A DNA stretch of 64,000 nt, taken from NCBI GenBank assembly GCA_963744145.1, contig CAVUSO010000001.1, forward strand, positions 3,328,001 to 3,392,000, written 5' to 3'. A model generated the notes under the pieces. It did not search any database. It saw nothing but the letters and a program-made list of their open reading frames with translations, and was not told the origin of the DNA. The stretch is from an uncultured cyanobacterium (GTDB lineage: Bacteria > Cyanobacteriota > Cyanobacteriia > Cyanobacteriales > CAWUOF01). Of the stretch, positions 1-35,510 are shown piece by piece. Positions within the stretch are counted from its first letter, which is position 1; each line of letters starts with the position of its first letter. The translations under genes and the position numbers were made by a program.

Positions 1-86
1 AGTATCACTGGATATTGAAGATTCAAATAGTATTCCAATGGCGGTTTTTCAAGTTCCGGATTCTTCTGATTCAATGTTTTCATCAT
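1..86 (-). CDS. hicB: HicB-family antitoxin, N-terminal part (runs off window start)
   Basis: Manual translation MMKTLNQKNPELEKPPLEYYLNLQYPVI; the LEYYLxLxYP start is HicB-like and overlaps the hicA 3' end. Confidence 0.7.
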   Translation of the reverse strand, partial: MMKTLNQKNPELEKPPLEYYLNLQYPVI

Positions 87-324
87 TCCATTCTTCCAAT
101 TTCAATAGTTCAACTATTTGCTGTACGTAAACTCCCTTAACTTTCTGTCCACCTTTTTTGGGGATAGTAATCTTTCTTCCCTGGGAGTCTCGGAAACTGT
201 GATGACTACCCTTAGACCTTTTTTCTTGAAATCCAAAAGCTAACAAAATATACACTACATCCTCAAAGCGCACTTCTGGTGGTTGATTGAGGAATTGCTC
301 GACTAATTTTTTTAATTTGCCCAT
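49..324 (-). CDS. hicA: HicA-family toxin (mRNA interferase)
   Basis: 91 aa; GFQEKRSKGSHHSF...ITIP motif. Confidence 0.85.
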   Translation of the reverse strand: MGKLKKLVEQFLNQPPEVRFEDVVYILLAFGFQEKRSKGSHHSFRDSQGRKITIPKKGGQKVKGVYVQQIVELLKLEEWNDENIESEESGT

Positions 325-985
325 GAAAGCAAGGTAAAGCGATCGCAGTATTGATCATAATTGATAATTGACAATTAATACCAATTCACCATGAAGATAC
401 ATTGATGTATATTGATCTGTGGGTGAGGGTGGGTTTTGATGATTAGTAGGTAAATGTCAAACATCTCGGTGAACCCGGGCGGGTTTTTCTAATTAATTGG
501 TAAATTTCAAAAATCTGGGCGAACCCGCCCCTACTACAGAAATCCGCAAATTGAGGATAAAATTGGTAGATACTGTCTTGATTTGTCAATGGGTAGCGAT
601 CGCCAAATTGCCTAATTAGGGTCAAAGAGTTTAGCAGATTTGAAAATCGCCAAAATATGGTTAGGGATTTTACCATTAAAGCACTAATCTCCTGGATTTT
701 TACCTGACCCACGCAGCCATCATCTCTCACTCATTAATGGGAGTAATGAGTGGTGAAGCATCGTGACTGTGGGCAGAAAGGCGAGCATTTTTGGCACTGG
801 AAACCCGACGGATTGACCCTAACTATAGAGCCACCGTTTGTTCACCCAGACTGGGAATAGAAGTCAACCAGTTCCGTAGTTGTTTAAGCGAGATCCTCTC
901 GATGCACAGTCGTCAGTTTCGTCTGTTCATCTTGGTTGAGGGATGAACATGTTCTGGTGGCGAGATTTCGCCCGCCAGATCCCGT

Positions 986-1972
986 CTAGACGGGTAAAGG
1001 GGTAGCGCTCGCGTAATTGGGGTCAAAAGGTGTTTGGGATTTTAAAATCCCAAACGCCAAATGTAGGAGTTTTCGCATCAGGGCTCCAACCACCTGCATT
1101 TTTACCTTCCCACGCTCCAATAATCGCTCACTCATTGCCTTGAGTAATGGGTTATGACTCATCGCTACTACGGCGGGCATATACAGCGCTTTTCGCAGTC
1201 GAGTATTGCCTATACAAGACAAGCGAGTTTTACCATGAACTGAAGTTCCTGAACTCCGCTCGCAGGGATTTAACCCAACATAAGCAACTAATTGGCGGGC
1301 ATTTTTATAATCGGTAATCCGACCAATTTCAGCTAACAATACAGCCGCAGTTTGTTCGCCAATTCCCGGAATTGAAGTCAACAGCTCACGTTGTTTTTTC
1401 AAATGGGGATGTTGGTCAAAATGGTCGCGAATTAATTGTTTGATCTCGGCTTGTTGTTGGGCGAGATATTCTAGATGCTTTCTCGTTATCAGCGCGACAG
1501 ATTCGCTCTCGGTTTCGAGCCGATTCTGCTCCTGTTGCGCGATTTCGATGAAGGATTCTAGTCGTCTGAGTAGGGCTTGTAATTCCTTAACTTCCGGTGC
1601 TGTTGGTTTCCAAAATGACGGCTTCATCGCCACACAAAAACGCGCAATTAAGCCTGCATCTACCGCGTCGGTTTTCGTTCGCAGGAGTTCACTTTTGGCA
1701 AATCCTTTGATCCGCGCTGGATTAACGATACTTACCTGATAACCAGCTTGGTAGAGGAATTCAGCTAATGCTTCCCCATAAATACTGGTCGCTTCTAAGC
1801 AAGCATGAAGTTCTACCACACCTTGACATTTGAGCCATTGTGCTAAACTTTCAAACCCTTCTAGATCATTAGTAAACTTTTTTGGTTTTGGCTTTTTCCC
1901 ACAGTCCAGTTTCAATAAAACGACATGAAAGTCTTTTTTACTGATGTCTATTCCTAAGACTGTAGATGTCAT
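986..1972 (-). CDS. IS110-family transposase / bridge recombinase
   Basis: GIDISK, LEAT, KTDAVDA (DEDD RuvC), SIPGIG and the SSG serine motif are intact. Confidence 0.95.
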   Translation of the reverse strand: MTSTVLGIDISKKDFHVVLLKLDCGKKPKPKKFTNDLEGFESLAQWLKCQGVVELHACLEATSIYGEALAEFLYQAGYQVSIVNPARIKGFAKSELLRTKTDAVDAGLIARFCVAMKPSFWKPTAPEVKELQALLRRLESFIEIAQQEQNRLETESESVALITRKHLEYLAQQQAEIKQLIRDHFDQHPHLKKQRELLTSIPGIGEQTAAVLLAEIGRITDYKNARQLVAYVGLNPCERSSGTSVHGKTRLSCIGNTRLRKALYMPAVVAMSHNPLLKAMSERLLERGKVKMQVVGALMRKLLHLAFGILKSQTPFDPNYASATPLPV

Positions 1973-1989
1973 AAGTTTCGACCGATGTC

Positions 1990-2185
1990 GAGTTGATGGG
2001 TGAGAACTTGACAGACATTAAACTAACCTTGTTAATACAGGCTATCTCGTGACCACGAGTGCCTTAGATACTGTCGAGTTTTCTGTGCGTCTGTCATCAG
2101 CGACTGGGAGCTTATCTACAAAACAGACTTATGAGGTCTGAGGGGCGGGCCAACTTCACCACTTGCTGATGTTCTTCAGCACACT
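1990..2185 (-). ncRNA. Predicted IS110 bridge RNA (boundaries approximate)
   Basis: Target loop: CCCGCCCCT (2149-2141), hairpin, TGTAG (2120-2116). Donor loop: ACAGTATCT (2074-2066), hairpin, ACAAG (2032-2028). Confidence 0.8.
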
Positions 2186-2452
2186 TTCTCATCTCTACTG
2201 AGCTGAGGTCGAAAACTTTTCTAGTTTCTTTAGATTTCTCACTAATCCTTGATGTACCTGCATCTTGGTAGTCCAATTATCTGTATCCTTTAAAGATACA
2301 AGGGGCAGGTTCACCAGTCAATTTTGCCACCAACAGATCACCATTATAAACCTGCCCTGACCTAACAGATCAACCTCAGATTAAGTGCAATTTCATAGTT
2401 AATTGGTATAACCCGAACTCGGATTAATTGTCTTCTTCCTCACAATCTGTTC

Positions 2453-3202
2453 CTAAACTTCTGGCTCAATTCCAGCAGCGCGAAGTTGGGCTGCTAATTT
2501 TTCAGTGCGAATCCGTTCCTGTTCAGCGCGAATCCGTTCCTGTTCAGTTCGTTGACGTTCTTGGGCCATTTGCTCGGTAGCCCACAACAATAAATTCCCC
2601 AACTCATCCCACCAGCGTAGCCAATAACCCTGACGGTTTTCTCGATTTCCCTCCCATACCCCTAAAAAAAGTTGCATTTCCGGTATCCAAAACCGTTTTT
2701 GTTCTGATGCTGTCTCTAATCGATACTGTTTTGCCTCACTAAAACGATATAGTTCTAATGTGCCTGTTCTTGGCTCAAAAATGCCATAATTGGGCACTTG
2801 CAAAATCTGTTCGTAGTAGAAGAATTTTCCTGGAGGGTAAGTTTCTTTGATCGAATACTCTCCTCCTCCTGTATCTGATAAAAACTCTAATACTAAAGCC
2901 GGAATTTCGCCTTGAAGTCGAGGGGTATAACTACGAACAACTTCTGAACGGTCTACAGCGATCGGATAAATGTACGCCCAATCAGGAGCTTTCACCACTG
3001 TCTTCCCATTAATAGTGGCACAAATACCATAGTTGGTGGGAGTAAGGGCATTTTCTGGTAGTTTACCAGCCAATAGTAAGCTTTCAGTTAATGCCGCAGC
3101 CAGTGCCGGTTGATTAATATTATCCACAGGATCATCAGGTAATACAAAATCATCGGGTAACTTTTCCCAGGTAACCGTGTAAGTGGGGGTGGTAGCTAAC
3201 AT
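2453..3202 (-). CDS. Uma2-family (DUF820) putative endonuclease
   Basis: KAPDW, VLEFLS, YEQILQVPNYGIF motifs and a C-terminal coiled-coil repeat. Confidence 0.85.
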   Translation of the reverse strand: MLATTPTYTVTWEKLPDDFVLPDDPVDNINQPALAAALTESLLLAGKLPENALTPTNYGICATINGKTVVKAPDWAYIYPIAVDRSEVVRSYTPRLQGEIPALVLEFLSDTGGGEYSIKETYPPGKFFYYEQILQVPNYGIFEPRTGTLELYRFSEAKQYRLETASEQKRFWIPEMQLFLGVWEGNRENRQGYWLRWWDELGNLLLWATEQMAQERQRTEQERIRAEQERIRTEKLAAQLRAAGIEPEV

Positions 3203-3285
3203 GATGTTTTGTGTAGAGATAGTAAATTAACGTTATTTATTTTATCATCATTCCAGGTAAGGTCGCATCGTTCGTAGTCAGGGCT

Positions 3286-3624
3286 TTAGCCCCATTGAAT
3301 TATTGTAAAGTTTAGGACATAGATAATTTGTGCTGATTCCAAAATGTTTTTACGTCTCAACCAGTTTTGACTTCGTTCGATCGCTGCTTTAACAATGAGG
3401 TCTACTTTTCGCTCAAAGATAGCTTGAAGTTCATCACGCATTTGTAGTGTTTCAGTTAAACCACGTTGGGCAGTTGGGGCAAAAGTTAGCAATACATCAA
3501 TATCGCTATCAGGATTAAAATCATCTCTGAGAATAGAGCCGAATAGCGCCAATTCGGTAATTTGCCATTTGTGACAGAATTCAGCAATTTTTTCCATTGG
3601 TAAAGCGATCGCAGTATTAATCAT
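3286..3624 (-). CDS. Minimal nucleotidyltransferase (MNT) antitoxin, no HEPN partner adjacent
   Basis: LFGSILRDDFNPDSDIDVL motif. Confidence 0.85.
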   Translation of the reverse strand: MINTAIALPMEKIAEFCHKWQITELALFGSILRDDFNPDSDIDVLLTFAPTAQRGLTETLQMRDELQAIFERKVDLIVKAAIERSQNWLRRKNILESAQIIYVLNFTIIQWG

Positions 3625-3658
3625 AATTGATCATTGACAATTGATATTGTCATTAATT

Positions 3659-4267
3659 TTATTCCCCATTTTCGGCAAAATTAACTTTTTTATACAGTTG
3701 GCTTAAAGAAACTTCTAGATTAATTGATGGGAGAATTAACACTTGATCTTTTAACTCATATTCGGTCAAAATCCATTGATTTTCAGAAGTTTTGACATAT
3801 TGCATTATATAATATTTAGTTTGGTCAATCAGAAGATATTCTTTAAATTCTGGAATTGAGCGATAATAGAGAAATTTATCACCTCGATCGTAATCTTTAG
3901 TAGATTTCGATAAAACTTCTGCAATAAACACAGGATTGGTAACTGTTGTGGTATTTGTCCCGTAATAAATCGGTTGATGTTGAATTACCATGACATCAGG
4001 ATAAGTAAATTCCCGATAGTGAGGTATCCACAATTTCACATCCCCAATATAAACTTCATAGTCTTGATCGTTTAATGCTATGTTTAAACAAGTTGCTAAA
4101 TTCAAAGCCAGTTTATTATGATTGGTAGTACCCCCAGTCATGGGGATAATTTCTCCATCGTGATACTCGTTTTTATGATCGGTTTTTTCTTCCAGTTCTA
4201 AATATTCTTCTGGGGTATAGTAAGCTTTCAGCGTTTTGATCTCAAAAGTAGTAGTTTGCAGTTTCAT
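3659..4267 (-). CDS. Uma2-family putative endonuclease
   Basis: YTPEEYLELE, TYPDVMV, AEVLSKST, YDRGDKF motifs. Confidence 0.88.
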   Translation of the reverse strand: MKLQTTTFEIKTLKAYYTPEEYLELEEKTDHKNEYHDGEIIPMTGGTTNHNKLALNLATCLNIALNDQDYEVYIGDVKLWIPHYREFTYPDVMVIQHQPIYYGTNTTTVTNPVFIAEVLSKSTKDYDRGDKFLYYRSIPEFKEYLLIDQTKYYIMQYVKTSENQWILTEYELKDQVLILPSINLEVSLSQLYKKVNFAENGE

Positions 4268-34903: not shown

Positions 34904-35510
34904 GCCATCTTTACTTTTGCTGTTCCTTCATCCAGAATAGACAAGCTCAACTAGTTTTTCCAACTAATTTTCAAATAGTAATTAATACTTATATAAATAA
35001 TCGGGGTCATAAAACTTGACTCTGATCAGTTTGATCATCTTAATGATCGTACAGTGCGATCGCCTGAAGTTTGAACTGTGCGATCGCGTTTGCTAAGATG
35101 ATCTGTAGTTTGGGATTGATCTGTGGGGTGAGGGCAGGTTGATGATGATTACTCATTTGTGACAGAATTGATCGGTGAACCTGCCCCTACAATAGGGTTG
35201 ATTGTTTAATTTTCTTTTTGATGCGATCGCATCCATTAATAATTATAAAATATATAGTTCATCAAACAGAAATATACTGGTGATCAATTAATTTGGTCTA
35301 ATTGTCCTATTGCTGCTAAATTAGTTATCGGTGAAGTGTCACTAACAATAATCACAAATCGCCCAATTTTTTCAGAGTTTCCAAGTCATATTGTAAATCT
35401 TCAACTTTTATCATTATTTTACTGAAAATGCAAGCTTTTTATGTTGGGATGGGTATAGTTTTGTCTAATTTAGACTTTTGGTGTGAATAAACCAGTAATA
35501 ATGATAAAAT

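Follow-up and report, generated by a model that had tools for sequence, protein, structure and literature searches.

An IS621-type insertion sequence in an uncultured cyanobacterium with a predicted left-end bridge RNA complementary to a REP-like repeat of its host

Results

The window analysed here is a stretch of 64,000 nucleotides from an uncultured cyanobacterium (GenBank assembly GCA_963744145.1, contig CAVUSO010000001.1, positions 3,328,001 to 3,392,000). Close to its beginning, on the minus strand, lies an IS110-group insertion sequence (IS) that consists of a 330-nt left end, the frame of a 328-aa recombinase and a 418-nt right end, and that sits within a miniature inverted-repeat transposable element (MITE) of ~297 bp (Table 1). 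We read it as an autonomous element of the IS621 type, in which a predicted bridge RNA of the left end would pair with the donor and with a target in a repeat resembling repetitive extragenic palindromic (REP) sequences; we give this reading a probability of about 0.9. What is said of IS621 below follows Durrant et al. 2024 (PMC11208160) and Hiraizumi et al. 2024 (PMC11208158).

Table 1. Positions of the element, its predicted guides, the host MITE and two remnants (window positions unless a contig is given)
Feature	Position	Strand	Evidence or detail
Whole IS110-group element	568..2302	minus	Four copies match bases 1-1735; empty sites; metagenome joint 567/2301
Left terminus: CT core and right donor half-site TGTAT, then -10-like TATCTT	2296..2302	minus	
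Conserved 5' stem-loop ahead of the target-binding loop	2212..2228	minus	38-sequence alignment; helix 1 88% paired
Left target guide CCCGCCCCT, as RNA CCCGCCCCU: 7 target bases and core-pairing CU	2141..2149	minus	
Target-loop inner hairpin CAGAC/GTCTG (RNA CAGAC/GUCUG)	2124..2140	minus	Helix 3 92% paired
Right target guide GUAG within UUUGUAGAU, with 5' U-rich extension and 3' handshake guide AU	2114..2122	minus	
Left donor guide ACAGUAUCU (DNA ACAGTATCT)	2066..2074	minus	Equals the right-end terminus
Donor-loop inner hairpin, two-part	2040..2063	minus	Helices 6 and 7 100% and 92% paired; compensatory changes
Right donor guide and handshake GU	2026..2036	minus	AU at 2035-2036, ACAAGGU at 2026-2032
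Recombinase gene, 328 aa, intact	986..1972	minus	Catalytic D9, E60, D102, D105, S241
Right end, 418 nt	568..985	minus	Decayed copy of the recombinase gene (3' ~550 nt) with an internal deletion
Left part of host MITE	2303..2409	minus	Left target half-site CCTGCCC; TTGACT 17 nt before the element's TATCTT
Right part of host MITE	378..567	minus	Includes unoccupied perfect site 524-534(+)
Solo right end, 40 bp	G000:C1:1845634-1845673 (L005)		Abuts right part of MITE
Solo left end, 33 bp	G000:C1:6337133-6337165 (L006)		Abuts REP-like unit (CCCGCTC-CT)

Two Pfam domains were found in the recombinase, both above the cut-off: PF01548 (RuvC-like DEDD, N-terminal; E 5.1e-26, residues 6-153) and PF02371 (Tnp domain, C-terminal; E 7.6e-30, residues 196-279). 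Over its full length the protein matched recombinases of solved structure, namely those of IS621 (8wt6; E 4.6e-74) and ISCro4 (9t56; E 1.3e-73). We counted 48 identities to IS621 in the first 102 aligned positions, roughly half. In the alignment, read by eye for the window copy, D9, E60, D102, D105 and S241-G242 stand opposite D11, E60, D102, D105 and S241-G242 of IS621, whose composite active site is formed by those DEDD residues and the serine (Hiraizumi et al. 2024, PMC11208158).

To define its extent, the element was compared with the whole genome (7.70 Mb, 4 contigs). Four full copies match it over bases 1-1735: copy A in the window, copies B and C at 99% and copy D at 93%. Every one of them begins with CT-TGTATC and ends with ACAGTAT-CT; in the window, the start lies at 2302 and the end at 568. 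Joining the flanks of A by script gave a sequence that is present uninterrupted in 18 genomic copies; 17 of these are at least 98% identical to it, and every join shows one CT only. In addition, among the contigs of four DNA sequencing runs, two from a soil metagenome link 567 to 2301, skipping 1733 bases, with 2 bases ambiguous at the joint. Since copy ends, empty sites and metagenome joint agree, the boundaries are exact. The 1,735 bp include the CT core at both junctions and hence correspond to an insertion of 1,733 bp and one additional CT; terminal inverted repeats are absent and the CT core alone is repeated at insertion, the pattern of IS110 elements. Besides the full copies, the genome carries a solo right end and a solo left end, remnants of two further insertions that have mostly been deleted since. 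All full copies and both solo ends abut CT inside a REP-like motif. Beyond the element, the shared flank measures about 109 + 192 bp for A, B and C and 43 + 2 bp for D. The frame is 328 aa long in A and D, while B and C share a one-base insertion that cuts it at 273 aa.

When the two ends are joined, the right end-left end junction reads ACAGTATCTTGTAT, the same as the wild-type donor 14-mer of IS621; Supplementary Table 2 of Durrant et al. 2024 (PMC11208160) lists ACAGTATCTTGTAT as the donor specificity and ATCGGGCCTAC as the target specificity of IS621. The IS621 design template in the same supplement consists of variable guide slots among fixed hairpins. The left target guide of the present element occupies the same slot as N9 of that template, and the right target guide with its handshake bases (GUAGAU), the left donor guide (ACAGUAUC) and the right donor guide (ACAAGGU) fit its N slots position for position. 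The donor loop is complementary to the joined ends, ACAAG and AU standing against CTTGT and AT of the left end. The handshake positions fit as well: the AU of the target loop faces donor A6-T7, and the G of the donor-loop GU faces target C7, the pairing described for IS621 (Hiraizumi et al. 2024, PMC11208158; Durrant et al. 2024, PMC11208160). At the right junction we found ATCTAC, as expected for an AU handshake with donor A6-T7 after strand exchange.

The predicted bridge RNA was examined as a 228-nt block aligned over 38 sequences, with a mean column identity of 72%. On it we placed a seven-helix structure drawn by hand from the present sequence. In this structure 89.4% of cells are paired, versus 23-40% when the partners are slid by 1-3 columns, a percentage that is biased in favour of the manual structure because that structure was drawn from this sequence. 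Eight pairs are changed on both sides versus 2.3 in shuffles, and 1 of 500 shuffles reaches eight; the sequences are close relatives. A partial structure from RNAalifold, which pairs part of the guide region, was replaced by the manual one. Folding of the whole 330-nt left end by itself (z -1.78, loops absent from the global fold) was uninformative. A consensus scan also raised a terminator-like flag at the target-loop inner hairpin (2124-2140) with the U-rich UUUUGUAGAU that follows it on the minus strand. Directly before the left guide stands GGUGAAGUUGG (2150-2160, minus), and the genomic repeat has GGTGAA directly before the target bases; this parallel between pre-guide RNA and pre-target repeat is probably due to chance, the Chamaesiphon relatives being without it.

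The 11-bp target predicted from the guides, CCCGCCC-CT-AC (CCCGCCCCTAC), occurs 119 times in the genome versus 0.63 expected, and its CCT variant, CCTGCCCCTAC, 96 times versus 0.97 expected. Copies A, B and C occupy CCTGCCC-CT-AC, with one mismatch to the guide, and D occupies CCCGCCC-CT-AC, a perfect match to CCCGCCCCU, the guide of the other three. The window itself holds two matches versus 0.25 expected: the empty perfect site beside the element (Table 1) and a one-mismatch CCT site at 35180-35190(+). The genomic sites form one repeat family, mostly GGTGAACCyGCCCCTAC. An inverted partner of the 9-nt arm AACCyGCCC lies upstream in 204 of the 215 sites, in 162 of them at a distance of 35-39 nt, versus 10 for a shuffled arm; CTAC directly follows the arm, and the opposite strand reads as a GTAG head followed by a hairpin. 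The target is the 3' arm of a REP-like hairpin, with the GTAG head, imperfect palindrome and high copy number of a REP; IS621 encounters the REP of E. coli in this geometry too. The loop of the repeat, ~37 nt, is long for a REP. The 8-nt head GCCCCTAC has 955 genomic copies versus 82 expected. REP arrays linked to a REP-associated tyrosine transposase (RAYT; G000:C1:4373019-4374982 and 4306636-4308084) share only this head with the IS target and not the full motif. The genome also contains 7,811 GCGATCGC octamers versus 41 expected, an excess that is a cyanobacterial mark and is in keeping with the relatives described below.

What an earlier, first-pass annotation had observed in the letters of the window withstood this analysis wherever it could be checked. 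It had described a recombinase with intact DEDD and serine residues, an element running from 568 to 2302, joined ends that match the IS621 donor, and target and donor loops in the left end around the hairpin CAGAC/GTCTG, and all of these were recovered, the guides included. The same is true of the reconstituted insertion site with its one mismatch (CCTGCCC-CT-AC versus the guide), of the perfect and one-mismatch targets, and of the assignment of the target to a REP-like repeat of the host; the flanks of the other copies and of the solo ends, once tabulated, agreed with that target.

Copies A, B and C lie at one position of the ~297-bp MITE, and D and the solo left end lie outside it. The MITE ends in TACCAATT and AATTGGTA; in an alignment of 21 copies, read by eye, the flanks of most fit a 3-bp TNA duplication. 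There are 18 further genomic copies (for example G000:C1:1219444-1219742), 98-100% alike and made of REP-like sub-units. Each MITE carries a perfect CCCGCCCCTAC on the opposite strand ~35 bp away, which is empty in the window. The MITE-type site makes up ~37 of the 215 sites, yet of the six insertions it holds four, namely those of A, B and C and that of the solo right end. We considered the extended right guide (UUUU) as the cause of this preference and rejected it, as CTACAAAT sites would pair better than the occupied CTACCAAT.

For comparison, 49 related loci were collected. The nearest proteins are from Microcoleus (78-82% identical, 323 aa), and others are from Tychonema, Chamaesiphon and Calothrix. 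Guide and left flank were readable in 34 loci: the guide matches the 7-nt left flank perfectly in 29 (23 CCCGCCC, 6 ATTGCCC), with one mismatch in four and with two in one. Past the right end, 35 of 35 relatives have AC as their first two bases. A single Chamaesiphon metagenome-assembled genome (MAG) holds all six ATTGCCC copies. Microcoleus and Chamaesiphon relatives share the design, and the guide follows the flank when the flank changes, the independent changes being few.

Several variations were seen among these relatives. Most Microcoleus left ends (most of L011-L057; e.g. L034:851-1214) hold a variable minisatellite that separates the left terminus from the bridge block. Its 20-nt unit, which includes GCGATCG, is present in 18.2 copies in L034; the present element has no such array. 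Owing to this minisatellite, left ends range from 277 to 698 nt. In eight relatives (L019, L027, L029, L030, L033, L035, L051, L057) the donor guide is GCGGUAUCU, and in the seven of them in which the right end was recovered it still reads ACAGTATCT, leaving two G:T positions. Five loci (L025, L026, L027, L046, L049) carry CUCUUGU or CUCUCGU instead of ACAAGGU; these right donor guides may mark inactive copies or another pairing mode.

The right end, which is present in all four copies, is related to the recombinase gene. It is 67-72% identical to bases 756-1309 of the element's own gene region, with the catalytic-serine region deleted. Exactly at the stop codon (977-986) stands the relic of a right-end motif, GACGGGATCT, and the working terminus ACAGTATCT lies at 568-576, preceded on the minus strand by a perfect TTGACA at 584-589. 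Compared with the 3' ends of relatives the tail is 65-70% identical; the idea that it derives from a different, closer relative was dropped on these figures, and since the tail is equally distant from the relatives and from its own gene, it is simply old. The right end follows the protein match at a distance of 13-26 nt in 35 of 35 relatives, and a sequencing-run contig (X4) joins 604 to 1014 and thus represents a relative without the 409-nt tail. To judge by these comparisons, the tail is either a partial duplication of old date or a nested remnant, the outer terminus of which was taken over as the working end. It is this dead gene fragment that makes the right end (418 nt) longer than the left (330 nt), whereas a longer left end would be expected of the IS110 group.

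Joining the ends would also create a putative promoter. The computed circle junction contains TTGACA, 18 nt and TATCTT across the core, with 10 of 12 consensus matches; in the integrated state, the MITE flank offers TTGACT 17 nt before TATCTT. Both are predictions from the consensus. The same arrangement, with the -35 box in the right end and the -10 box in the left end, is described for IS621 (Durrant et al. 2024, PMC11208160).

The surroundings of the element are rich in small genes of toxin-antitoxin type and nuclease genes, as judged from the domains that the neighbouring open reading frames match: HicA toxin (49-324(-)), Uma2 in two of them (2453-3202(-) and 3286-3624(-)) and a nucleotidyltransferase domain (3659-4267(-)). 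The genome has a single other IS110-family DEDD domain (G000:C1:4052920-4053402(-), 37.8 bits), which is distant from that of the element.

Discussion

The anatomy of the locus suggests the following course of events. The 328-aa DEDD/Ser recombinase would bind a bridge RNA of ~200 nt encoded in the left end. The donor loop (ACAGUAUCU followed by AU..ACAAG) would pair with the junction formed when the right end of the excised element meets its left end, and the target loop (CCCGCCCCU followed by GUAG) with both strands of the 11-bp site CCCGCCC-CT-AC. Recombination at the CT core would then insert the element, with no inverted repeats involved and no duplication beyond CT. In the genome, the site is the arm adjoining the CTAC (GTAG) head of the REP-like hairpin, available in ~215 copies, and insertions should be largely harmless, since many copies of the repeat lie within the ~297-bp MITE. 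The -35 box would be supplied by the right end in the circle (TTGACA) and by the MITE flank upon integration (TTGACT). The sequences show the anatomy, the exact boundaries, the donor, the fit between guides and site, the abundance of the repeat and the recent, precise movement of a dead copy. We infer that the RNA is made, that its pairing directs the reaction, and which copy's RNA and protein acted.

A number of observations weigh against this reading. Given the 38 sequences alone, RNAalifold recovers only part of the manual structure, with five double-change pairs and a covariation term of +0.06. A search of window positions 1-4000 against Rfam 15 (E up to 1) returned only chance matches to HIV_GSL3 and SNORD82 (E 0.14 and 0.28), a result that says little. 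Few independent events underlie the covariation of guide and flank: the guides fall into two classes, one of which, ATTGCCC, is represented by six loci of a single MAG. In L031, L041, L048 and L054 the core-pairing U of the left guide is replaced by G (CCCGCCCCG), and the next hairpin begins differently. Moreover, A-type copies, whose guide has CCC, lie in CCT sites although 119 perfect sites exist, one of them ~35 bp away in the MITE, and two of the four copies are frameshifted. The description of the element as intact in the first-pass annotation consequently applies to A (and D) and not to B and C, and it is D whose guide fits the occupied sites without a mismatch.

The frameshifts could be taken as a sign that the element is a fossil, with loops kept by descent only and no copy active today, and the two decayed solo ends and the 418 nt of dead sequence in the right end would fit such a view. 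Against it, the full frame of 328 aa survives in A and D, and in A the catalytic residues align. Conservation of the loops extends to relatives with 66-82% protein identity, although the left end around them measures anywhere from 277 to 698 nt. Copies B and C show 0 differences in the 1,736 bp of the IS and four differences in the 297 bp of flanking MITE, and the presence of identical copies in different MITE copies indicates very recent movement, so that we find a fossil hardly credible. The same pair of copies bears on the possibility that the three MITE copies are passengers, spread via the transposase of the MITE itself or by homologous recombination between MITE copies. A, B and C do share 107 + 190 bp of MITE flank, each composite having a TNA duplication of its own (TTA, TTA and TGA), and all three stand at a site that mismatches their own guide. 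With the nearest flank difference ~25 bp from the IS end, the chance that all four differences would fall in the flanks is ~0.0005, and D and the solo left end use the same motif outside this MITE. Identical, frameshifted B and C in differing MITE copies therefore point to recent and precise site-specific insertion with recombinase supplied in trans, and argue against spread with the MITE or by homologous recombination, which we consider improbable.

If insertion was site-specific, the mismatched sites call for an explanation. The copies differ at IS base 156, where a C to T change makes the left guide CCC in A, B and C and CCU in D. The A-type guide thus meets the CCT sites with a C:A mismatch, whereas the CCU guide of D pairs with the CCT sites of A, B and C perfectly and can reach CCC sites, the one occupied by D included, through a G:U wobble. 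It is conceivable, and we weigh it seriously while favouring it less than not, that A, B, C and the solo right end were placed by the guide of D acting in trans and not by their own. The guides of A and D differ at exactly the mismatched position, their donor loops and ends are the same, so that the RNA of D could handle the circle of any copy, and the precise movement of frameshifted B and C means that protein supply in trans has already occurred here. In IS621, the bridge RNA works when expressed in trans, and the natural guide pairs with the commonest target, ATCAGGCCTAC, via one G:T position (Durrant et al. 2024, PMC11208160); the eight relatives that carry donor guide GCGGUAUCU beside right end ACAGTATCT again involve G:T positions. 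On this explanation it is still puzzling that A-type RNAs placed no copy in any of the 119 perfect CCC sites; as there are only four copies and two remnants, chance could also have produced the pattern, and a single distal C:A mismatch may simply be tolerated, given that most natural IS621 sites have zero to two mismatches (Durrant et al. 2024, PMC11208160). A survival bias toward mismatched sites, with matched copies excising, was also considered and rejected, since 29 of 34 related loci are at perfectly matched sites; the finding reported in a 2026 preprint that IS621 excision is independent of target complementarity was counted against it as well. A more elaborate proposal, which we offer as speculative and on the whole doubtful, is that of a shared pool: two guide alleles would coexist with two target alleles, the C-to-U change of D would widen the reach of its guide to all 215 sites (119 CCC and 96 CCT) through G:U pairing, the RNA of D would have placed A-lineage copies, dead ones included, in trans into the CCT sites of the MITEs, and the MITE -35 box would keep them expressed. 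Were it correct, natural single-base retargeting and trans-guidance would have been caught in the act.

A full-text literature search, judged by titles and the beginnings of abstracts, found no paper on a cyanobacterial bridge-RNA element. This guide and target are absent from the readable parts of the supplements of Durrant et al. 2024, so the element may still be in that catalogue, and a blastn search in distant mode with the left end and gene gave no match in any of the complete E. coli genomes. The bridge recombinases of ISCro4 and IS622 belong to the same family, the match to ISCro4 (9t56) being full length at E 1.3e-73. A preprint by Perry et al. is said to describe these enterobacterial orthologues as engineered for human cells. 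ISPpu9 and ISPpu10 of Pseudomonas putida reportedly belong to IS110 and use repeated intergenic palindromes as insertion sites. A recent preprint on ISPpu10 reports that a second determinant of specificity is a stem-loop located 5' of the target, and that the recombinase acts in trans (10.64898/2026.03.19.712850). The present element resembles it in that its site is also the 3' arm of a hairpin and in that a dead copy moved; the likeness concerns site and movement. With the IS1111 group, whose RNA is known as seekRNA or right-end bridge RNA, it shares a DEDD recombinase and RNA-guided choice of site (Durrant et al. 2024, PMC11208160). IS1111 elements differ in carrying the RNA in the right end and in having long subterminal inverted repeats, whereas here the RNA is predicted in the left end and the long right end is a dead gene fragment and not an RNA gene.

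Closest is IS621 of E. coli. According to Durrant et al. 2024 (PMC11208160), bridge RNAs are a general feature of IS110 elements, and IS621 targets REP elements. Alike in both elements are the two Pfam domains, the catalytic residues, the 14-nt donor ACAGTATCTTGTAT and the CT core, the right target half AC with guide GUAG, the AU and GU handshake bases, the succession of loops and hairpins along the left end, and a REP-type target ending in CTAC (the E. coli REP target ends in CCTAC). They differ in host, in ~130 nt of extra left end before the bridge core here, in the right end, which is 418 nt long here and not short, and in the left target half, ATCGGGC in IS621 versus CCCGCCC; among the guides only these seven bases are changed. 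The term retargeting, used in the first-pass annotation for a cyanobacterial version of the IS621 design, is apt insofar as guide and site differ from those of IS621, but it does not single out this copy, as 23 Microcoleus-type loci have the same guide and flank.

Together, the comparison extends the IS621 design to cyanobacteria: with proteins that are ~50% identical, the two elements have the same donor 14-mer, GUAG guide and handshake bases, the change is confined to the seven left-target bases, which now match the REP-like hairpin of the host, and in both hosts the fixed half-site is the CTAC/GTAG head of the repeat. For tool building, it adds a compact candidate orthologue from a phylum short of integration tools; its genome has ~215 native sites at which it could land, and its two naturally occurring guide alleles would lend themselves to probing mismatch and wobble rules. 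For genome biology, it documents the nesting of an IS with a MITE and a REP-like repeat, together with a dead copy that moved, and leaves the known mechanism unchanged. The element is a clear and well-preserved new example of a known design, and its predicted mechanism is that already described for IS621.

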